Shown here in pieces: positions 1 to 42,574 of a stretch of DNA of 64,000 nucleotides. Source of the DNA: an uncultured Gammaproteobacteria bacterium (GTDB taxonomy: Bacteria > Patescibacteriota > Microgenomatia > UBA10105 > UBA927); NCBI GenBank assembly GCA_964629685.1, contig CAZVTT010000001.1:244603-308602 (forward strand). The letters run 5' to 3'. A program made the translations under genes and the position numbers. The notes below the pieces were generated by a model, which was given only the letters and a program-made list of their open reading frames with translations, had not been told where the DNA came from and ran no database searches. Numbering within the stretch: the stretch's first letter is position 1; each line of letters begins with the position of its first letter.

Positions 1-277
1 GGCTCTGGAAATGCATGCCGTAATGATTACGTCGCGCCCTGCTCTGCTATATTGGACCATGGGAACGTTAGCAATAATGAAATTAGTACCGCTATGGCGG
101 AAAGGGGGTCTGGAAGTATATTTCACCGTTAATACCGGTCAGGATATTCATCTGCTCTGCCTTCCGGAAAACAGGGATGTGCTGGTAGCGAAGTTGCGGG
201 AATTGCCGTATGTTAAGGATATTATAGTTAATACGCCTTGCCCGGGAACAAAAGTAACGGAGACGCATCTGTTTTAA
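1..277 (+). CDS. 3' fragment of a GHMP-kinase-family gene, most likely diphosphomevalonate decarboxylase (gene continues upstream of the window)
   Basis: Frame is open from the window edge. The C-terminal translation ...YWTMGTL...EVYFTVNTGQDIHLLC... resembles the C-terminal block of mevalonate diphosphate decarboxylases (YFTMDAGPN-type). Stop TAA at 275-277. Confidence 0.4.
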   Translation, partial: ALEMHAVMITSRPALLYWTMGTLAIMKLVPLWRKGGLEVYFTVNTGQDIHLLCLPENRDVLVAKLRELPYVKDIIVNTPCPGTKVTETHLF

Positions 278-279
278 TT

Positions 280-978
280 ATGACTCAGGCACATATTCCA
301 AAGCATGTCGCGATTATTATGGATGGTAACCGCCGTTGGGCAAAAGAACACGGCCTGCCCACGTTGGAAGGTCATCGTCGGGTAGCCGATGATATTTTAG
401 ATCCCCTAATCGAACGGGCTTCGGAAATTGGTATAACGCACATGACATTTTGGGCCTGGTCAACAGAAAACTGGCAACGTGACGCACGGGAAGTGGCGGG
501 AATTATGCGCTTGTTCCAGCATATTGTGCAGCGGCGGTGGGATCGGTTGCATGAGCAGGGCGTGCGTATTAAAACCATCGGTGATATTTCTAAATTTGAT
601 ACGGGTATACGGACATCTTTAGAGCGGCTGATTGAGCAGACGAAAAATAATACTAAAATTACCGTTACGTTTGCGTTAAATTATGGCGGCCGGGATGAAA
701 TCATCCGAAGTATAAATAAATGGCAACAATCAGAGAAATCGCACGAAACGCTTTTAACGGCAGAAAAATTAGGTGAATTTTTAGATACTGCGGGATCACC
801 TGATCCCGATTTAATTATCCGTACCGGCGGGGAAATGCGATTAAGTGGTTTTTTGCTTTGGCAATCAGAATACAGCGAGCTCTATTTCCCTACGTGGTAT
901 ATGCCGGACTTTACGCCGGAACGTTTGGATGAAGCGGTAGAGGAGTATGCTAAGAGGCAGAGACGATTCGGGAAGTAA
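280..978 (+). CDS. uppS: undecaprenyl diphosphate synthase (isoprenyl transferase)
   Basis: Classic UppS motifs: HVAIIMDGNRRWA, FWAWSTENWQR, LNYGGRDE, RTGGEMRLSGFLLWQSEYSELYF. Start moved to the ATG at 280 (MTQAHIPKHV), which lies just after the stop of the upstream gene. Confidence 0.9.
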   Translation: MTQAHIPKHVAIIMDGNRRWAKEHGLPTLEGHRRVADDILDPLIERASEIGITHMTFWAWSTENWQRDAREVAGIMRLFQHIVQRRWDRLHEQGVRIKTIGDISKFDTGIRTSLERLIEQTKNNTKITVTFALNYGGRDEIIRSINKWQQSEKSHETLLTAEKLGEFLDTAGSPDPDLIIRTGGEMRLSGFLLWQSEYSELYFPTWYMPDFTPERLDEAVEEYAKRQRRFGK

Positions 979-1863: not shown

Positions 1864-2958
1864 TTATGAGAATCCCGGTAATCCGAGAATATTTACCCCT
1901 ATGAATCGGAGTATAAATACGGAAAATATTATTAACATTAATCCGGCAATGGCGGAAGTAATCAAATCTCGCCCCTCGCTCATCGCTTCAGGATTTCCCT
2001 GGCTCATGATTACTTTAAATCCGCCCAACAGAATGAGTAAAAACGCAATTCCGCCACCAAGGCCAATTCCGATAGTAAGTATTTGCCGGATAAATGCTGC
2101 CGGGTCCGTAGGGATACACCCTAAGCCTGTTTTAATACCGTTGTTTGCACATTCCACATAAGCGAAGCGTTGTCCGGTTTCTACGGGAGGTGGTGTGGTA
2201 CATGCGCTTTGAACACAACAGATCGTTCCCGCTGTTTCACAACGTAATCCATTGTTATACCCGCACACAGTCGTTCCGTTATTGCACAATGCAGCAGTTG
2301 TACAAGACATTCCAGCCCCAACGCAGGGTGCAATACTTCCTGTTTCTGCCGGACCGTCATCCCAACAAGACCCACCGCGGCATTCAGCGCTGGAAACGCC
2401 GCAAGTCCGTGCACAATCAGCGTTTCCGACACATCCCATGGCAGGATTTGGACCGCATACTTCTGCATGAGGAATACACTGTCCCGGTGATCCTATGTTG
2501 CAATTGAACCCCCCGCTGGGACAGACACAGCTTAACGTGCCGCTACAGCCGCTGCTTTGACCAACTATACAGGGGGCTCCGGGGGTACCCGTCGGATTGG
2601 TCGGAGTAGCCGGAGTGGTGGGAGGGGCAGTCGGTGGATTGGAAGGAACTGTAGGTGTATTTGTATTTACTGCCGTAGGGGTTGCCGGTGCTGCACAGAT
2701 GCTACCCGGATTGGGAGTGGCCACCAATGGATCCCGACAGGCATAGGAACCGTCTCCTTGAGGATAACAACAGCCGCCACCCCTGGTACAAGGCGAATCA
2801 GATTCAAAACCGGGGAGACTACAGTTTAATTGCGAACATCCGGCTCCGGAACACTGTGCAAATATAATGTTGGGGTGTTTTACCAGTGTGAAGAAGAGAA
2901 TGAAGCCGAAAAAAAATAACGAGTTATATATTATTCTTTTGGCGAATGCATATTTCAT
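1864..2958 (-). CDS. fusion protein: signal peptide + Cys-rich ectodomain (about 45 Cys) + Pro/Thr-rich linker + C-terminal VirB2/TrbC-like pilin domain
   Basis: 364 aa. The N-terminal TM/signal is followed by a Cys-dense region (CSGAGCSQLNCS..., CVCPSGGFNCNIGSPGQC...), a PT-rich stretch (TPTAVNTNTPTVPSNPPTAPPTTPATPTNPTGTPG) and a C-terminal 90 aa (GLGCIPTDPAAFIRQILTIGIGLGGGIAFLLILLGGF...SAIAGLMLIIFSVFILRFIGVNILGLPGFS) homologous to 1361..1753. Confidence 0.55.
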   Translation of the reverse strand: MKYAFAKRIIYNSLFFFGFILFFTLVKHPNIIFAQCSGAGCSQLNCSLPGFESDSPCTRGGGCCYPQGDGSYACRDPLVATPNPGSICAAPATPTAVNTNTPTVPSNPPTAPPTTPATPTNPTGTPGAPCIVGQSSGCSGTLSCVCPSGGFNCNIGSPGQCIPHAEVCGPNPAMGCVGNADCARTCGVSSAECRGGSCWDDGPAETGSIAPCVGAGMSCTTAALCNNGTTVCGYNNGLRCETAGTICCVQSACTTPPPVETGQRFAYVECANNGIKTGLGCIPTDPAAFIRQILTIGIGLGGGIAFLLILLGGFKVIMSQGNPEAMSEGRDLITSAIAGLMLIIFSVFILRFIGVNILGLPGFS

Positions 2959-4845: not shown

Positions 4846-5505
4846 ATGCCAACACTCTACCAGTCTAACCAACCAGAAACACCGTCTCCGGCTCATCCCA
4901 ATACTGCAAAAGAGAAGCCGTTTGATCACGAACCTAAGTTTTTTTCCCGACGTGACACCATGCGCATGTTTACCCAACTAGCTGTTAATCCCCAGGGAGT
5001 TCGGTTTGAAACTCAGGAAGCTGAGGAAAAAATAATTCTCTTTATGCGGCAACATTTTATTGTGAATATTCCCTGGATCGTAATTACCGCAATCATGTTT
5101 GTAACGCCAAAACTTATATTTCCGTTTATAAGCCAAATTATTCCCTTTCCGGTTACTATTCCCTGGGGATATGCTATTACCGGTATTTTATTCTGGTATC
5201 TCGCAACCTTTGGGTTTGCTTTGTCTAGTTTTATCAGCTGGTATTTCAATATCTATATTGTTACCAATGAACGTGTTGTGGATATTGATTTTTTATATCT
5301 ACTGTACAAAGAATATTCGGAGGCGGAATTATCTAAAATACAGGACATGACATATAACGCAGGAGGAATACTGGCTACCGTTTTTAATTATGGAAACCTC
5401 TCCATAAAAACAGCGGGAGATAGTGCAAATTTAACGTTCGAGAAAATTCCTTATCCGCAAATGGTGGTGGAAACAATCAGGGAATTACTGGAGGATATAC
5501 CATGA
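4846..5505 (+). CDS. membrane protein with a bacterial PH (bPH_2/YdbT-like) domain
   Basis: Two TM helices followed by a pattern (YFNIYIVTNERVVDID...) typical of bPH_2 domains. Confidence 0.4.
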   Translation: MPTLYQSNQPETPSPAHPNTAKEKPFDHEPKFFSRRDTMRMFTQLAVNPQGVRFETQEAEEKIILFMRQHFIVNIPWIVITAIMFVTPKLIFPFISQIIPFPVTIPWGYAITGILFWYLATFGFALSSFISWYFNIYIVTNERVVDIDFLYLLYKEYSEAELSKIQDMTYNAGGILATVFNYGNLSIKTAGDSANLTFEKIPYPQMVVETIRELLEDIP

Positions 5506-5732
5506 TCCCCACAGTCCCAACAGAGGTATCTACCGCAGTGTTATTGGCAATTAAATTATTTGCTCTATTAGGATTGTTGATTTATGTTGGCTTCGCCGCC
5601 GTAATGGTTCGGCAGGAACAGTTAATGGCAAAAGTACTGGAATCTTCTTCGGAAAAAATGTTACGCATATTAGTGAGCGTTCACCTTCTGTTAGCGTTAA
5701 TTCTTTTTGGATTAGCATTCGTTTTACTCTAA
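5502..5732 (+). CDS. small membrane protein, hypothetical
   Basis: 76 aa with two hydrophobic helices. Its start overlaps the stop of the upstream gene (ATGA), suggesting coupling. Confidence 0.3.
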   Translation: MIPTVPTEVSTAVLLAIKLFALLGLLIYVGFAAVMVRQEQLMAKVLESSSEKMLRILVSVHLLLALILFGLAFVLL

Positions 5733-5781
5733 CTCCTTACTGTAGATCGGTTTCTGTTGTCTCGCGTGCTAAGATAAGATT

Positions 5782-7611
5782 ATGAAGATTCTTCCTGCTG
5801 TAGCTTCCGTGGTGACCCGTGCGTCTCCAACCGATTGGGCGCAAGTACTACAAACACCCCAGGCCTATGCGGTAATCCAGACTCTTGATTCTTCCGGACA
5901 GGCATTGCGGACCGGTGTTTCTCTCTTGGGTAGTCTTACCAGATTATTGGAAAAAATGCCGGAATCGGTTCAGGAATTAAAAACGGCGGTTCAGGAAATA
6001 GATGGTGAACATATAGTTTCTTTAACGGTGGTAGTTCCTCGAGGGCAGACACTGGATGTAATCCAGCGTGGTGAAGGAAGTGTCTATCTTAAGCGCGGAA
6101 AGCAACTGGCCTGTTTATTAAGCGCAGAGGGTGTCATATCTGGCGACGTCGCTGAAGGGGATGTGGTGATTTTAGCGGATAAAAATGCATCAGAATTACT
6201 TACGGACGCAGAAATTATTACCGCTGTTGATCACGAGCTTACTGCTGAGGAAATAGGAGAGCGGTTGGCAGTGGTTCTCAACGAAAAATCCGATAATGAA
6301 GGTGCTGCCATGCTGGTGTTTCAGATAAAAGACATAGTAGAGGAAGAACCGGAACAGGAGAGTGTTGCGGAAACGGAAGATACTGACACAATTCCCGAGG
6401 CTGACGATCCGGTTCCCTTGCCTAGTGCGATTTCTCACCCGCTTCCGCAACGCATCAGACATTTTTTGGTACGAATTAAACCTCGCATTGTTAAATTAAT
6501 CCCCGGTTCAAATAAAAAGTTAGCGGTTATTGTGTTTATTTTTGCCGGACTTTTTGGTATTAGTGTGTATTTGGGTATCAAAAAACAGGGAGAAAATGTT
6601 AGTTCAAAAAATGTGGCCGAGGCCGTATCACAGGCTCAGTCTTTATTGGATGAAGGTTTGGGTTTGCTTTCCGTCAATCGTGAGCAGAGTAGAATAAAGT
6701 TAGAAACGGCACAAGCATTACTGCAAAAGTATAAGGACAAACCGCCACTATCTAAAGAAGGAAAACGTGTCCCTCAACTTTACCAGCAAATATCCGATAA
6801 CCTGGAAGTAGCAAAACAAATCATCCGCGGCGAGCCGCAGCTTTTTTACGATCTGGACTTAATAAAAAAAGGCGCATATATCCACAAATTTGCTGTCTCA
6901 GACGATACCTTGGGGATGTTGGATGAAAATCAAAAAACTGTTTTTGTAGTCCGTATTCCCACTAAGGATGGTGATGTGCTGGCCGGTGGAGAGCCCTTTA
7001 CCGCAGCCACTGCGGTAGCTGCGTATGGAAAACAATTTTACGTGCTTACCGGTTCCGGAATTTACGAAATCAGCAGTAAGGGAAAAATTCCGGCCAAGCC
7101 GGTTATAGAGCATGACGAAACATGGGGGACAATCGGCGCTTTGGTGGCGTATGGTGGTAACCTGTACCTGTCCGATTTGCAGAAGAGCAGGATCTGGAAA
7201 TACGTAGCCACAGAAGTGGGATTTGATGTACGGCGGGAATATTTGAATCCCGATACGTTACCCAATTTATCACAGACTACGTCTATGGCCATCGACGGGC
7301 ATGTTTGGTTTGGTACAAAGAATGGCGAAATACTCCGATTTGCACAGGGAAAAGCGGACACATTTTCTCCAATTGGCATAGAACCGCCACTCGGTGAAGT
7401 GATTTCTGTTTATACTACTGACGATTTAGCTAATATTTATATCCTGGATGCTGCGGGGAAGCGGGTAGTTGTATTGCAAAAAGACGGACGGTATACTGCC
7501 CAATACGTTTGGAACGGGGAGATTTCTCCTGAACTGTTCCTGGTTTCCGAACAGTATAAAAAAATATTTTTGGTTGCGCAGGGAAAGTTGTATGCACTTG
7601 ATCTGCGCTAA
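5782..7611 (+). CDS. hypothetical single-pass membrane protein with a C-terminal beta-propeller-like repeat region
   Basis: 609 aa with an acidic segment, a TM helix (LAVIVFIFAGLFGISVYLGI) and C-terminal repeated motifs (YVLTGSGIYEI, LYLSDLQKSRIWKY, IYILDAAGKRVVVL, KLYALDL) reminiscent of NHL/propeller blades. Confidence 0.4.
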   Translation: MKILPAVASVVTRASPTDWAQVLQTPQAYAVIQTLDSSGQALRTGVSLLGSLTRLLEKMPESVQELKTAVQEIDGEHIVSLTVVVPRGQTLDVIQRGEGSVYLKRGKQLACLLSAEGVISGDVAEGDVVILADKNASELLTDAEIITAVDHELTAEEIGERLAVVLNEKSDNEGAAMLVFQIKDIVEEEPEQESVAETEDTDTIPEADDPVPLPSAISHPLPQRIRHFLVRIKPRIVKLIPGSNKKLAVIVFIFAGLFGISVYLGIKKQGENVSSKNVAEAVSQAQSLLDEGLGLLSVNREQSRIKLETAQALLQKYKDKPPLSKEGKRVPQLYQQISDNLEVAKQIIRGEPQLFYDLDLIKKGAYIHKFAVSDDTLGMLDENQKTVFVVRIPTKDGDVLAGGEPFTAATAVAAYGKQFYVLTGSGIYEISSKGKIPAKPVIEHDETWGTIGALVAYGGNLYLSDLQKSRIWKYVATEVGFDVRREYLNPDTLPNLSQTTSMAIDGHVWFGTKNGEILRFAQGKADTFSPIGIEPPLGEVISVYTTDDLANIYILDAAGKRVVVLQKDGRYTAQYVWNGEISPELFLVSEQYKKIFLVAQGKLYALDLR

Positions 7612-9943: not shown

Positions 9944-9981
9944 TAGTCGAAGCGGGTTAAAACTGGTATAATTGTATGCCT

Positions 9982-10067
9982 GGAGAGTTGGCTGAGTGGT
10001 CAAAAGCGAGGGTTTGCTAAACCCTTGAGCCGAAAGGCTCGCACAGGTTCGAATCCTGTACTCTCCG
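9982..10067 (+). tRNA. tRNA-Ser (anticodon GCT)
   Basis: Cloverleaf read by eye: acceptor GGAGAGT/ACTCTCC, anticodon stem AGGGT/ACCCT with loop TTGCTAA, long variable arm, T-arm CAGGTTCGAATCCTG, discriminator G. Confidence 0.8.
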
Positions 10068-10068
10068 C

Positions 10069-10167
10069 CCTTCGTCGCTACGCTCCTCAGGGTAAACTTC
10101 ATTGCAGGGGTTCGCCCTGATGATAGTGCGGTAAGTAGTAACCCTGAGGAACGGAGTGACGACGAAG
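10069..10167 (+). other. long imperfect hairpin occupying the entire spacer between two tRNA-Ser genes
   Basis: CCTTCGTCG...TCAGGGT at the 5' side pairs with ACCCTGA...CGACGAAGG at the 3' side (perfect 9-bp and 7-bp arms with an imperfect middle). Confidence 0.5.
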
Positions 10168-10254
10168 GGAGAGGTCGCATAGTGGACTAGTGCGCTTGTC
10201 TTGAAAACAAGTGTGGGCGCAAGCCTACCGCGAGTTCGAATCTCGCCCTCTCCG
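10168..10254 (+). tRNA. tRNA-Ser (anticodon TGA)
   Basis: Acceptor GGAGAGG/CCTCTCC, anticodon stem CTTGT/ACAAG with loop CTTGAAA, long variable arm, T-arm GCGAGTTCGAATCTCGC. Confidence 0.8.
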
Positions 10255-10353
10255 CCTTCGCTCGCCGGAGCGAGCTACGGCGGACGAAGTCCGCAAATAG
10301 ATCGCGAAGGAGAGATTCGGTCGCCAGAGCTTTAGCGACGGCGAGCTTCGCAT

Positions 10354-18747: not shown

Positions 18748-18819
18748 GCTCCCGTAGTTCAACGGATAGAATGGAGGTTTGCGGAACCTCTGATCGCAGT
18801 TCGATTCTGCGCGGGAGCG
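18748..18819 (+). tRNA. tRNA-Arg (anticodon read as GCG)
   Basis: Acceptor GCTCCCG/CGGGAGC, D-stem GTTC/GAAT, anticodon stem GAGGT/ACCTC with loop TTGCGGA, T-arm CGCAGTTCGATTCTGCG, discriminator G. Confidence 0.6.
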
Positions 18820-18857
18820 CTAATATTTTCAATTAGGAACAGGGTTCAGACTCGTTT

Positions 18858-18944
18858 GGTGAGGTGTCGGAGTGGTTAAACGGCCAGGTCTCGAAAACCT
18901 TGGGAGGGGAAACCCTCACGCGAGTTCGAATCTCGCCCTCACCG
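18858..18944 (+). tRNA. tRNA-Ser (anticodon CGA)
   Basis: Acceptor GGTGAGG/CCTCACC, anticodon loop CTCGAAA, long variable arm GGGAGGGGAAACCCTCAC, T-arm GCGAGTTCGAATCTCGC, CCA encoded. Confidence 0.75.
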
Positions 18945-18998
18945 CCAATTCCACACACGTACACACGGGTATTACGCTGAATCTTCAGTAGAAGCGCG

Positions 18999-21425
18999 TT
19001 GGAATTTATTATGACGAGGCACCGGAAAGATATTCTGCTGGTAATTCTGTTTTTCGTGTTATCGGCAGTGATATTCCGAAAATACATACTCCAACATCAG
19101 GTCCCTTTCCCCGCAAATTTACTTGTTTCGTATTACCAACCCTGGAAATCATATCCGTATCCCGAATATCCAAACGGGCCGCCGAATAAGCCCATGGGGT
19201 TTGATAATCTGCGGATCCATTTCCCGCTGCGGATGTTAGCTACATCGCAGGTAAAACAAGGTCTCGCTCCGCTTTGGAATCCTTTTAATTTTTCCGGAAA
19301 TACACTTTTGGCTACATATCAATCTGCCATATTTCATCCCTTATCATGGCTCTATTTGCTGCTACCGGGAATAGATGCCTGGTCGGTAATCATTCTGTTA
19401 CAGCCGTTTTTGGGTCTGGTGTTTTTCTTTCTTTTTCTGCGGGAAATCGGTTATTCACTATTAGCCAGCGGGTTGGGCAGTATGACATTCGCATTATCCG
19501 GTACCTTGCTGGTTTGGTGGGAGGAAGCATATGTGGCTGGATATACGGCAATCGGGCTTCCTTTAGCACTGTTGGCAATAGAAAAATTTCAAAAGCGGGG
19601 GGGACGGGTAAATTTTACCCTTGTAGTTCTTGGGTTTATATGGTTATTAGTTTCCGGATGGTTTCAATTTACATTATATAGTTTTATTTTTATTGGATTG
19701 TGGTGTTGGTACAGGGTTTATATATTGCACGCTATTAATTGCAAGCGTATGCTCCTTGTTCTATGTGCTCTGGTTGTTGCCGTATTGCTTAGCGGTATTC
19801 ACCTGCTTCCTGCTGCGGAAGCATATATCCATTCTCCCCGGGCGAGTACTGACGCGAAATATTTATTTGACGGTTATCTCATGCCGTTATCCCATTTGGC
19901 TACAATTATCGCACCGGATTTTTTCGGTAATCCCGCCACGTATTCTTTTTTCGGAAAAGGATTTTATTATGAGCACGTCATGTACTTCGGTGTGGTGTCG
20001 TTGGTATTCGTTTTATATGCATTGCAAATGGTTTCCGTCAGGGATAAGAAAGCAATTCCGGGCTACTTTTTTTTGTTTTTTCTGTCACTCGGTTTGGCAC
20101 TTCCGACCAGTTGGTTTTTGCTTTATACCCTGCATCTGCCCTTAATATCGGTGCTTATTCCATCTCGAATATTTTTTCTCTCGACGGTAAGTGCTGCCAT
20201 TTTGGCAGCCGAAGGTATGGAGCGTTTTTCCGAAAAACCTCAGGGAAAAAAGATGCTGACCGTGCTCGGATTACTTGGTGTGATGTTGTCGGGTATGTGG
20301 ATGTTTGTGTTGTATATGAAGTACACAGATCCCCAATCTTCATTTGCTACTGTAACTCTTCGTAACCTGGTTTTGCCTACGGTTATGTGTGTCTTAACTT
20401 TGCTCCTGCAGATAATTGCGTTTAATCGGGTTTGGCGGAAAGCGGCGCTTTGGAGTTTGCTTCTCGTTGCCGGTTTGGGTTCGGTATATATGGCGAATAA
20501 ATATCTCTATTTTTCAGAAGCACGATTCGTTTATCCCGATGTGCCGGTAATTACTACCTTAAGGGAGAAAGCCGGGATAAATCGGGTTTGGGGATTCGGT
20601 GACGCAGTACTGGAAAATAATTTCTCGACTATGCTCGGTTTATATACCATTGAAGGGTATGATTCATTCTTCATCGGAAGATACGGTGAACTCTTGTGGG
20701 CTGCTGCCAATAACGGCGTCGTATCGCATGATATCCCCAGAGCCGATGCGCGTTTATCCGCACAACAGTGGGGTGGGAAATATTTCGTTCATCCGCAGCA
20801 GGCAAAAATACTGGCGCTTCTGGGCGTTAAGTATCTGTTCGGGACAAATACCGGCACGGAGGAAGACGCTCCGTTTAGTGGTACGGAACCATTAAAGCGT
20901 ATTTGGCACGATAGTGCCTATGCAATATATGAAAGCGGTTCGGCATACCCTCGCGTATTTTTCGTAGACAATTATGTTATCCGAAATAGTGACCAGGAAA
21001 TAGTGTCGACGATGTTTGCGGATACCACGGATTTACGGAGAACGGTAGTTTTGGAAAGAGATCCCCAAATAGGTCATGTTGACGCATCCGAGTATACCGC
21101 GAATGTAATTTCTTATACGCCGCATCTGGTTTCCGTAGAAACCAAATCTGAAAAGGACGCCATATTATTTCTTTCCGATGTATATTTCCCCGGTTGGCGT
21201 GTGTATATAGATGGGAACAGACGCGATATATTACGGGCAAATTATACCTTCCGGAGTGTCGTTGTTCCGGCAGGGACTCATTTGGTAGAGTGGCGCTACG
21301 AACCGGATTCCTGGCGCTTCGGGTGGGTTATGTTCACGGGTGGTGTCCTATTATTCTGTATGATTATTTTTTACTACAAACCGGGAGCTGTTACCGTACA
21401 AAGAAGCAGAAAAAAAACGGTATAA
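18999..21425 (+). CDS. YfhO-family polytopic membrane protein (putative glycosyltransferase for cell-envelope polymers)
   Basis: 808 aa. N-terminal pattern LLVSYYQPW...YPEYPNGPPNKP...FDNLRIHFPLRMLATSQVKQGLAPLWNP, then more than 10 TM helices and a large C-terminal extracytoplasmic domain, as in YfhO proteins. Confidence 0.55.
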   Translation: MEFIMTRHRKDILLVILFFVLSAVIFRKYILQHQVPFPANLLVSYYQPWKSYPYPEYPNGPPNKPMGFDNLRIHFPLRMLATSQVKQGLAPLWNPFNFSGNTLLATYQSAIFHPLSWLYLLLPGIDAWSVIILLQPFLGLVFFFLFLREIGYSLLASGLGSMTFALSGTLLVWWEEAYVAGYTAIGLPLALLAIEKFQKRGGRVNFTLVVLGFIWLLVSGWFQFTLYSFIFIGLWCWYRVYILHAINCKRMLLVLCALVVAVLLSGIHLLPAAEAYIHSPRASTDAKYLFDGYLMPLSHLATIIAPDFFGNPATYSFFGKGFYYEHVMYFGVVSLVFVLYALQMVSVRDKKAIPGYFFLFFLSLGLALPTSWFLLYTLHLPLISVLIPSRIFFLSTVSAAILAAEGMERFSEKPQGKKMLTVLGLLGVMLSGMWMFVLYMKYTDPQSSFATVTLRNLVLPTVMCVLTLLLQIIAFNRVWRKAALWSLLLVAGLGSVYMANKYLYFSEARFVYPDVPVITTLREKAGINRVWGFGDAVLENNFSTMLGLYTIEGYDSFFIGRYGELLWAAANNGVVSHDIPRADARLSAQQWGGKYFVHPQQAKILALLGVKYLFGTNTGTEEDAPFSGTEPLKRIWHDSAYAIYESGSAYPRVFFVDNYVIRNSDQEIVSTMFADTTDLRRTVVLERDPQIGHVDASEYTANVISYTPHLVSVETKSEKDAILFLSDVYFPGWRVYIDGNRRDILRANYTFRSVVVPAGTHLVEWRYEPDSWRFGWVMFTGGVLLFCMIIFYYKPGAVTVQRSRKKTV

Positions 21426-21680
21426 AATGTTGTTTTTGGATTGCAGGAACAATATCTCTGTGATAAAGTACAATCGTTGCTTACTGATGGACATAGTGTC
21501 CGACAACCCTTGGAAGCAATATGATGGGAAATCCCGCTGAGTGGGAGTTATGGGGTAGTACCAACAGTAGCTGATGGAGAAGATTAAAATTCGTCACGAA
21601 GGGAAGTGGAGAGGGAATCCTTCGTGACTCTTTGTAAGGAAGTATCGTTGGGAAAGAAACGTAGTTTCTGTCCCAGAACG

Positions 21681-21752
21681 CTCCTGTAGTTTAATGGATA
21701 GAACGCGGCCCTCCGAAGGCTGTAATGGCAGTTCGACTCTGCCCGGGAGCGC
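21681..21752 (+). tRNA. tRNA-Arg (anticodon CCG)
   Basis: Acceptor GCTCCTG/CGGGAGC, anticodon stem CGGCC/GGCTG with loop CTCCGAA, T-arm GGCAGTTCGACTCTGCC. Paralogous to the tRNA at 18748. Confidence 0.7.
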
Positions 21753-25059: not shown

Positions 25060-25149
<90 letters not shown>

Positions 25150-41278: not shown

Positions 41279-42574
41279 CTATTTTACTAAATATTTCCGA
41301 TTATCGCCGGAGTTACCGTTTATATTTCGAAGACAGAGGACGATGTATGTTAAGAGCAAAAATAAACAGACGGGAGGCCAACTGGCCAGTATCGTTTTCC
41401 ACGGTGAAAGCGAATCGACAATGCCGAGAAGCGATAACGGGGTCTGCCATTGTCCGAAAAGCAGCGGTAACACCCCGCAGACAAATAAAGCAGTAAGCAT
41501 ATTCCGTTTATAGTGTATTTGCCGTAGTAGTATAACGGCAAGCGAGAGGGGAACCAGTAAGAGCGGTACGTTCCAGTTCCATGAGAGCGGAAACGTAATA
41601 AATGCAACGATAGTCAGGTAGCCGTACAAAAGAATGAAGGAATGTTGTGAATATTGTTGTTTTAGATGGTTAAGCAATAGCAGGAATATACAGAGAAAAA
41701 TACCTGAAATACCGGTTGCGATTAAGGATATTTCCCCCAGCGGAATGTCCGCAATAAACGGTGTCATACCGGAAAAAGGATACCCGGATATCGGTCGGAT
41801 TATCGTGGCCGCTATCGTCCAGTTATTCGGATCTCCGAGAAAAAATTTTTCATTCGGAATTACGTTTGTACCATATGCCGCGATATTCGGAATACCGAGA
41901 GTAAAAACGGTAATAGCCCAACCGGTAACGAATAACAAGAAACCATTCCGCGCTTCTTTCTTATTACCCGTTATATAAAATCCCAGCAGTAAAATTATCG
42001 GCCATAGTTTTATAAGAGCGGCAAAGCCGAGAATAAGTGCCGCTGTATTTCTGTTTTCTCGCTGATATGCATAGGCACTGAGTGCGAGCAGGAGTAATAA
42101 CACAGATGAAACGTTATGAATGGAATTGGCTATGTGAAACGGATACCAATAATAACTAAAAGCCAGAAAGAACAGAATACCCCTGACGACAGGAGCGTTG
42201 AGAAGTCTAAGTAACAAAATACCGGCGAAGACGTAGGCGCAAATGGAAAATATGTCGAAAATATAATTTGCAGTTTGTTCCGAAAAAAACGTAAACGGAA
42301 TATAGAAAACTACTGAACTGGGGGGATGGGCGCTGTACTGTATATCCGTGGGGAAGGGAATCGTCCAACAACTGATCGGCGTGTAAATGGGTTGTCCGGT
42401 TATAAACCGTTTTGCAGCAACGTAATTTTGACAGAAGTCATTTACCTGATACGTTACCGATTGGAAACTAACTAATACAAATATGACAATCGCAGAAATA
42501 ATGAAATACATTCGGCTAAGTTGAAATACTGATTTCCACATACCTGTATCACCGTAATGGAGAAAGTATAGCAC
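41279..42574 (-). CDS. polytopic membrane protein, GT87/DUF2029-like (putative mannosyltransferase)
   Basis: 431 aa. An N-terminal TM, then DFCQNYVAAKRFITGQPIY (cf. DF..YY.AA..L..G..PY of GT87), followed by more than 10 TM helices. Confidence 0.4.
   Translation of the reverse strand: MLYFLHYGDTGMWKSVFQLSRMYFIISAIVIFVLVSFQSVTYQVNDFCQNYVAAKRFITGQPIYTPISCWTIPFPTDIQYSAHPPSSVVFYIPFTFFSEQTANYIFDIFSICAYVFAGILLLRLLNAPVVRGILFFLAFSYYWYPFHIANSIHNVSSVLLLLLALSAYAYQRENRNTAALILGFAALIKLWPIILLLGFYITGNKKEARNGFLLFVTGWAITVFTLGIPNIAAYGTNVIPNEKFFLGDPNNWTIAATIIRPISGYPFSGMTPFIADIPLGEISLIATGISGIFLCIFLLLLNHLKQQYSQHSFILLYGYLTIVAFITFPLSWNWNVPLLLVPLSLAVILLRQIHYKRNMLTALFVCGVLPLLFGQWQTPLSLLGIVDSLSPWKTILASWPPVCLFLLLTYIVLCLRNINGNSGDNRKYLVK

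Follow-up and report, generated by a model that had tools for sequence, protein, structure and literature searches.

In a 64,000-nucleotide stretch of contig CAZVTT010000001.1 (hereafter the window), which derives from a member of the Microgenomatia in the candidate phyla radiation (CPR, Patescibacteria), we describe a gene for a 364-residue protein that combines a C-terminal pilin module with a large, cysteine-rich ectodomain. The module belongs to the Pfam family PF18895 (T4SS_pilin, where T4SS stands for type IV secretion system), and we favour, with a probability of roughly 0.55, the reading that the protein is a modular VirB2-like pilin which presents a lineage-specific binding domain. 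What is new is a large, hypervariable and putatively disulfide-rich domain on a VirB2-like pilin at a conserved core-genome locus, since such pilins are known as small proteins; in the literature we found no description of long or Cys-rich forms of the Patescibacteria VirB2-like pilins.

The gene is intact. Its ATG at position 2958 is the first start of the frame and, because the stop-to-stop frame continues for just three codons beyond it, there is no alternative start upstream. The protein is identical to the 364-residue product recorded on the NCBI contig of 953,690 bp and to that of two Logan assemblies. An N-terminal signal peptide, already noted in the original prediction made from the letters of this stretch, was called by inspection of the sequence (MKYAFAKR followed by a hydrophobic core) and by the conservation of Ala34, which is kept in at least 90% of an alignment of 82 homologues. 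Cleavage probably occurs after Ala34, which would leave a mature protein of about 330 residues, and AlphaFold2 (AF2) models a helix at residues 2-27 within the signal peptide.

The mature part consists of two Cys blocks, a Pro/Thr-rich linker and the pilin module (Table 1). The original prediction had placed the pilin module correctly at the C-terminus, and several of its details change on counting. The protein contains 30 cysteines rather than about 45, namely 8 in block 1, 20 in block 2 and two (C270 and C281) in the pilin head. Of the proposed spacings, two CC pairs and one CxC are present, CxxC does not occur, and most spacings are C-x4-7-C. The Pro/Thr-rich linker exists, but it separates the two Cys blocks instead of adjoining the pilin module; in the AF2 model it has a predicted local distance difference test (pLDDT) score below 50 and no secondary structure. 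The ectodomain, expected to measure about 250 residues, is indeed dense in cysteine (12.1%, against 0.80% in 30 large ORFs, or open reading frames, of the window; binomial p = 4e-24) and covers residues 35-265, that is, 231 residues. A short TTPPPVETGQRF segment is all that joins block 2 to the pilin module; the junction peptide FAYVECANNGIK lies at this boundary, and the junction contains QRFAYVECANNGIK. Between the ectodomain and the module the sequence holds no internal segment resembling a signal peptide and none of hydrophobic or signal-peptidase-like character, so that a separately translated module could not be exported. A sortase signal, composed of an LPXTG-type motif, a hydrophobic segment and a basic tail, is absent as well, the C-terminus ending in LGLPGFS with nothing after it. 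The protein also lacks the class III signal peptide with a prepilin-peptidase site (G↓F/M-x-x-x-E) and the N-terminal alpha1 helix of type IV pilins, because its N-terminus is a classical Sec-type signal and its pilin module is C-terminal.

In the full protein PF18895 matches residues 288-353 with 27.8 bits, against a gathering cut-off of 26.6; taken by itself, the module reaches 30.9 bits, and each of the 21 aligned modules matches the family. The protein has the make-up of this family: a C-terminal pair of long hydrophobic helices with a short loop between them, and an export signal ahead. AF2, run with the 82-sequence alignment, gives block-mean pLDDT values of at least 90 over residues 271-350 and predicts a small beta-hairpin bracketed by C270 and C281, followed by helices at residues 286-318 and 323-352. 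Between the two predicted helices the conserved GNPE loop makes a turn of four residues, and the chain ends in LPGFS. Both C270 and C281 are conserved in at least 90% of the aligned homologues, while the GNPE loop is invariant and a PGF motif is conserved at the C-terminus. With the 99-residue module as query, an exhaustive HMMER search collected 10,924 cluster representatives at E<=1e-3.

The fusion is conserved in a sister lineage. The closest relative was returned as a protein of 203 residues without a signal peptide (P0002). On its contigs the reading frame continues upstream without a stop as far as an ATG, from which a product of 384 residues results, in the order signal peptide, Cys block 1, a longer Pro/Thr linker, Cys block 2 and pilin module. 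This frame is open over 384 codons in L004, L009, L010 and L011, and the gene is called at full length in L010 and L011. Whether related genomes keep or split the fusion, which the original prediction had raised while treating it as one gene, is thus answered by an uninterrupted frame here and by an intact ortholog with the same order of parts; the shorter calls are gene-caller truncations. We observed that gene callers place a spurious antisense ORF of 104 residues over the GC-rich region that encodes the Pro/Thr linker, and that the real 384-residue gene is then cut to calls of 203 or 148 residues without the signal peptide. Because the truncation arises at this GC-rich region, long pilins are probably under-counted in the databases.

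Comparison with the ortholog shows how the parts of the protein evolve. Identity climbs along the chain from 33% (block 1) through 55% (linker) and 61% (block 2) to 80% (pilin module), and the corresponding non-synonymous divergence (dN) is 1.0, 0.45, 0.32 and 0.17, which makes block 1 the fastest-evolving part. All 20 cysteines of block 2 align in register with those of the ortholog, whose block 1 has 6 cysteines. The proportion of non-synonymous differences (pN) lies below that of synonymous differences (pS) in every part, with values of 0.26 and 0.79 in block 2; a dN/dS ratio is not given because synonymous sites are saturated. Given pN below pS, the ordered divergence and the conserved cysteines, the Cys-rich region is, as judged from its codons, a translated domain under purifying selection and not low-complexity noise, in agreement with the earlier view of it as a domain.

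Neither sequence searches nor structure prediction assign the ectodomain to a known fold. Neither Cys block has a Pfam match at E<=10, so that the proposed EGF-, knottin- or keratin-associated-like domain does not appear, nor does one of the granulin or WAP kind, and the long gene has zero NCBIfam matches. The best hit of both blocks among PDB sequences is an unrelated ferredoxin (E 0.17), and the four Cys sub-blocks show no internal repeats beyond those of shuffled controls. AF2 models the ectodomain with low confidence, at pLDDT values of 37-62 in the full-length protein and block 2 by itself, aligned with its sole alignable homologue, with a mean of 42.

After the signal peptide, the number of cysteines is even in 212 of the 221 family members that have a signal-peptide-like N-terminus (96%; p ~1e-51). 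Since an odd number is this rare, we take the counts as strong indirect evidence that essentially every cysteine would be engaged in a disulfide and that these regions would fold outside the cytoplasm.

The ectodomain is, moreover, hypervariable. The ectodomains of 175 long relatives fall into 92 BLAST clusters without links between them, 70 of which are singletons, and the ectodomain studied here links to that of its ortholog alone. By BLASTP, P0002 is about 60% identical over 100 residues to an ectodomain sub-sequence. Protein-database searches with such sub-sequences returned the query or nothing; they also missed P0002 and are hence uninformative. Two metagenome contig scans for block 2, by a method that requires near-exact 8-mers, gave no match, nor did the full 364-residue protein against the contigs of species-representative genomes. 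The template repeat of a diversity-generating retroelement is absent: BLASTN of the gene against the 64-kb window matches the paralogous pilin module only.

We then placed the protein within its family. A full-length search yielded, among the 120 matches listed, proteins of 201-529 residues with a signal peptide and 1-28 cysteines before the module. As this search seems biased to long proteins, a module-only search was used. Among its 132 additional top representatives the module is C-terminal in 131, with at least 100 residues ahead of it in 52% and at least 200 in 19%. With 265 residues and 28 cysteines ahead of its module, our protein lies towards the top of a graded series. A long form occurs at about half of the syntenic loci from species-representative genomes, and the nearest named relatives are Candidatus Gottesmanbacteria. 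The fusion had been described as atypical. This is true with respect to classical VirB2/TraA pilins, but within the CPR family the ectodomain-bearing design is the norm. Some family members carry 2, 3 or even 8 pilin modules in tandem on one polypeptide, and we refer to these as polypilins.

The long gene is one of three pilin paralogues, as originally noted, the other two lying downstream on the same strand. A locally built family hidden Markov model (HMM) finds only these three pilin genes in the window, in a single same-strand cluster. The second, a type-A pilin without an ectodomain, scores 142.8 bits with this HMM, as strongly as the long gene, and 25.9 bits with PF18895. It shares 58-63% protein identity with the long gene over the module and 70% nucleotide identity. 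The third, of type B, weakly matches the Mbov_0395 pilin-like conjugal transfer protein (NF045849; E 1.4e-6, 27.9 against a cut-off of 40). Its hairpin loop is rich in lysine, and its N-terminal motif LAQ-x-LTLPG is common to the counterparts in L006-L008.

These genes occupy a fixed place in the genome, flanked by a divergent gene for a SpoIID/LytB-domain protein and a convergent gene for undecaprenyl diphosphate synthase (UppS), beyond which the mevalonate pathway follows. We found the same slot, by way of long homologues, in three distant genomes, where the order is SmpB, an unannotated protein of about 600 residues, DUF5657, a protein of about 200 residues, SpoIID, long pilin, short Cys-free pilin, UppS and mevalonate genes. 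Identity among the pilin modules of four syntenic genomes is 61-79%, comparable to that of UppS (58-79%) and SmpB (68-88%), whereas the ectodomains are 2-34% identical and hold from 8 to 25 cysteines. We further compared 42 related loci from species-representative genomes, each spanning about 6 kb on either side of the pilin match. Most belong to Candidatus Gottesmanbacteria, joined by Daviesbacteria, Beckwithbacteria, Shapirobacteria and Pacebacteria. Of the 42, 35 contain a SpoIID homologue and 24 contain UppS. The Cys-bearing type-A pilin measures from 126 to 562 residues, with start codons assigned crudely, and in nearly all loci it is followed by a Cys-free type-B pilin of about 105-136 residues. 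To judge by this gene order, the succession of SpoIID, type-A pilin, type-B pilin and UppS is a conserved core-genome slot of Microgenomatia, with UppS forming its far edge in Gottesmanbacteria-like genomes. Within it the ectodomains are essentially unalignable; the domain ranges from absent, or some 20 residues, to about 450 residues and is replaced, or has diverged beyond recognition, between genera.

Based on these observations, a mechanism can be proposed. The protein would be exported by Sec and cleaved after Ala34, and its C-terminal helical hairpin would insert in the membrane with both ends outside (N-out/C-out). The N-terminal region would fold outside the cell into two disulfide-locked blocks separated by a Pro/Thr stalk; its 28 cysteines and the two of the pilin head would allow 15 disulfides. 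The hairpin would either polymerise into a thin VirB2-like filament or remain a membrane stub, its likely partners being the Cys-free type-B pilin and the ectodomain-less type-A copy of 130 residues. The Cys-rich domain would be presented outward as a lineage-specific adhesin or host-recognition domain, with the stalk holding it off the membrane or the filament. The two termini of the pilin point outward in F- and T-type pili, and if this is so here, a graft at the N-terminus would cover the outside of the filament. A conserved hairpin combined with a variable ectodomain is expected when a surface-exposed part for recognition is joined to a constant part for assembly or anchoring. The idea, voiced in the original prediction, of a tip or adhesin subunit built into a filament is plausible.

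Several results weigh against the reading as a VirB2-like pilin with a binding domain. A profile of the modules matched no solved pilin among PDB sequences, a Foldseek search of the full model against PDB retrieved generic helical hairpins, none at E<=0.001, and PF04956 (TrbC) was touched by one of the 21 modules, at E 0.035. The tie to the characterised VirB2/TraA pilins thus rests on the name of the Pfam family, and membership in the classical VirB2/TrbC family is not established, because neither similarity nor gene linkage supports it. The hairpin loop of the 364-residue protein carries a net acidic charge, in contrast to F and T pilins, whose lumen loop is basic. Domains of VirB4, VirB6, VirB3 and VirD4 are absent from the 26 of 80 window ORFs (at least 120 residues) scanned with Pfam, and T4SS machinery is likewise absent from the precomputed Pfam calls for the flanks of the four syntenic loci (up to 10 kb per side) and from the large ORFs beside seven related pilin arrays. 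The neighbours are housekeeping or cell-envelope genes; beside the related arrays we found unannotated proteins, ClpB, chaperones and one Peptidase_M23 protein. A filament has yet to be observed for the PF18895 family, so its assembly is putative, and as the fold of the ectodomain lacks a confident prediction, its binding function is inferred from position and evolutionary pattern.

Much of this would suit a surface protein that does not polymerise, in which the hairpin is a two-helix membrane anchor, perhaps together with the type-B protein, and the ectodomain acts in the envelope or in contact with partners, in connection with the cell-wall genes next to it. The slot lies in the core genome between SpoIID and UppS with the mevalonate pathway, and the absence of T4SS genes from the ORFs and Pfam calls that were scanned and the lack of detectable homology to solved pilins point the same way. 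In many syntenic genomes the long form is, in addition, the sole type-A gene at the locus, so that nothing requires it to be a minor component in a filament made of short copies. On the other hand, a hairpin that is conserved like housekeeping proteins, with an invariant GNPE loop and a PGF motif at the C-terminus, exceeds the needs of a simple anchor. Proteins with 3-8 tandem modules fit self-associating units, Saccharibacteria arrays sit inside an essential T4SS cluster, and arrays of the family reach 8 genes (PMC12102498). We consider a mere anchor the main rival reading, possible though less likely than the favoured one.

It is improbable, in turn, that the Cys-rich region serves as a pro-domain, or as a released factor of toxin-, bacteriocin- or signal-like nature, which is cut off after export and leaves a short pilin behind. 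Classical VirB2/TraA pilins are synthesised with a long leader that is removed later, the short paralogue demonstrates that a module can work with no ectodomain attached, and the RFAY-x-EC junction before the pilin head, common to the closest relatives, could be a processing site. This junction is, however, preceded by no hydrophobic or signal-peptidase-like segment, a discarded leader has no obvious need for 28 conserved, paired cysteines under purifying selection, and the presence of ectodomains of 100-450 residues among thousands of relatives speaks for a domain that is displayed and functional. Least credible of all, and very unlikely in our estimate, is an artefact in which a secreted Cys-rich gene and a short pilin are joined through a missed stop or frameshift, or in which low-complexity sequence is translated by chance. 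The ortholog does appear split or truncated in some assemblies, with the antisense ORF over its Pro/Thr region. The missed frameshift or stop that had been named as a possible refutation is nevertheless not there, since the frame is open in the window and in two more assemblies, as it is in the four contigs of the ortholog, the truncated calls lack a signal peptide, pN stays below pS in every part and the cysteine positions are conserved.

The favoured reading, a modular VirB2-like pilin, can be compared with several known systems. Closest are the VirB2-like pilin arrays of Patescibacteria (Quinonero-Coronel et al. 2025, PMC12102498; Wang et al. 2023, PMC10633639), which belong to the same Pfam family and share the same-strand tandem paralogues of low mutual identity and the helical hairpin with a signal peptide. 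Such arrays are widespread in the phylum and abundant in Microgenomatia, one of the two classes richest in them, and about 40% of the assemblies with VirB2-like pilins carry pilins away from virB4 (PMC12102498). An array inside a T4SS cluster is essential in Southlakia epibionticum, the one species tested (PMC10633639; PMC12857230), and no PrgB-type adhesin was detected in the phylum (PMC12102498). The published pilins are described as small, unlike the mature protein of about 330 residues described here, and our locus is in the SpoIID/UppS slot and not beside virB4.

With the VirB2/TrbC/TraA pilins of F and T pili (PF04956) the protein shares a hydrophobic two-helix hairpin after a putatively cleaved leader; it differs from them in having no detectable match to solved pilins, no adjacent VirB machinery that we could find, a large ectodomain that is probably disulfide-rich, and a monoderm host. 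The head-to-tail cyclisation of VirB2/TrbC is implausible here, given the 231-residue N-terminal domain. The modular type IV pilins, for example PilB and PilC of Streptococcus sanguinis, combine a pilin module with a grafted adhesive module. The resemblance is one of design only, a conserved polymerisation module fused to a variable displayed one: the pilin fold and machinery are unrelated, and the graft is N-terminal here and C-terminal there. Multiple divergent, surface-exposed paralogues are also found in host-adapted T4SS, namely in TrwL/TrwJ of the Bartonella Trw system and in the VirB2 paralogues of Anaplasma, whose surface variants are read as host-range or antigenic variation (PMC12102498). 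In those cases the variation lies in small pilins and separate VirB5-type proteins, whereas here it lies in a large domain fused to the pilin. Finally, the Mbov_0395 protein of the Mycoplasma integrative conjugative element resembles only the type-B partner, weakly and below the cut-off. This match is consistent with the published MPF-FATA ancestry of the Patescibacteria T4SS, MPF-FATA being the conjugation class of monoderms (Firmicutes, Actinobacteria, Tenericutes and Archaea).

Several observations concern the neighbourhood of the slot and related loci (Table 1). SpoIID is paired divergently with the pilins across several Microgenomatia orders, even where UppS is missing (L006-L008, L012-L049). 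The wall-lysing partner VirB1 is reported to be missing in most Patescibacteria with VirB2-like pilins, and for this reason the SpoIID/LytB-domain protein, a member of a peptidoglycan-remodelling family, is a candidate that could fill a VirB1-like role. Three plus-strand genes at 4846-7611 of the window travel with SpoIID in most related loci. They encode a 219-residue membrane protein with a weak bPH_2 match, a 609-residue protein with a central transmembrane (TM) segment and no family match, and a 76-residue ORF that, assigned by position, sits where the syntenic loci have the DUF5657 gene. In the syntenic Gottesmanbacteria locus L007, at least four short PF18895 genes form a second array at 20039-21164, about 9 kb from the slot and just beyond a sigma-factor gene; the corresponding part of the genome studied here falls outside the window. 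Behind the pilin arrays of Daviesbacteria-type and Saccharibacteria loci come two kinds of protein, namely proteins with 8-9 TM segments, 46-50% identical to one another, and large secreted Cys-rich proteins of 500-831 residues with 19-32 cysteines. Neither group has a Pfam or NCBIfam match, and the polytopic proteins could be divergent VirB6-like channel components.

Elsewhere in the window, membrane glycosyltransferases of the GT-C type (YfhO and GT87) are encoded at 18999-21425 on the plus strand and at 41279-42574 on the minus strand; it is speculation on our part that the Pro/Thr stalk might be O-glycosylated from undecaprenyl-linked sugars. A plus-strand span of 16 kb holds four tRNA-Ser isoacceptors, a complete set, together with two tRNA-Arg genes, which is a notable share of the tRNA set when the genome measures about 1 Mb. 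Several records with the title 'uncultured Gammaproteobacteria' or 'uncultured Pseudomonadales' have the pilin module of the Gottesmanbacteria loci, mostly with SpoIID/UppS synteny.

Table 1 Positions of the modular pilin gene, its parts and neighbours in the window, and of features in related loci and records.
Feature	Position or identifier	Strand	Remarks
Modular type-A pilin-family (PF18895) gene, 364 aa	1864..2958	-	intact ORF; stop codon 1864-1866
Signal peptide, residues 1-34	2857..2958	-	MKYAFAKR n-region, hydrophobic core, NIIFA↓Q (putative cleavage)
Cys block 1, residues 35-90	2689..2856	-	8 Cys (within residues 36-88)
Pro/Thr-rich linker, residues 91-128	2575..2688	-	12 P and 12 T in 38 residues
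Cys block 2, residues 129-265	2164..2574	-	20 Cys (within residues 130-253)
Pilin module, residues 266-364	1864..2163	-	PF18895; helical hairpin predicted by AF2
Paralogue 2, type-A pilin, 130 aa	1361..1753	-	no ectodomain; signal peptide, Cys pair, hairpin
Paralogue 3, type-B pilin, ~123-127 aa	985..1368	-	Cys-free, no classical signal peptide; PF18895 31 bits
SpoIID/LytB-domain protein, 580 aa	3042..4784	+	divergent; Pfam SpoIID 1.8e-19, TIGR02669 5.2e-30
UppS	238..978	+	convergent; PF01255 Prenyltransf in same genome and syntenic loci
tRNA cluster	9981-10256; 18748-18947; 21680-21752; 25060-25149	+	
Gene-caller miscalls	L003 210-821; L004 354-668, 772-1383; L009 1514-1828, 2097-2543		
Polypilin examples	P0122-P0126, P0128 (312-487 aa), P0154, P0185, P0251 (820 aa)		possibly fusions or array read-through
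Post-array unannotated proteins	L038 8174-11244; L040 8629-11323; L045 9330-11822; L047 2148-4301; L048 7017-8543		
Oddly titled records	L015, L021, L023, L024, L028, L030, L033, L035, L036, L039-L041, L053		taxonomy looks placeholder or wrong

Patescibacteria are thought to live attached to other microbes, and how most of them recognise their partners has yet to be explained. Their T4SS-like system is essential in the one species tested, and no adhesin has been found for this system. It is conceivable, although we hold this only tentatively, that the disulfide-rich ectodomain is the missing adhesin of the T4SS-like apparatus of Patescibacteria, that the slot encodes a minimal surface filament whose outer domain sets the choice of partner or host, and that the turnover of the domain reflects an arms race or host switching. 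A single gene is one of thousands, which tempers the surprise, and it is the pattern at the level of the class that matters to specialists of CPR and T4SS. VirB2-type pilins, always described as very small, can be modular, and a conserved hairpin with an interchangeable, putatively disulfide-locked domain at a fixed position, in thousands of members, makes a testable candidate for a specificity determinant. This design may be how ultra-small CPR cells grip their partners.

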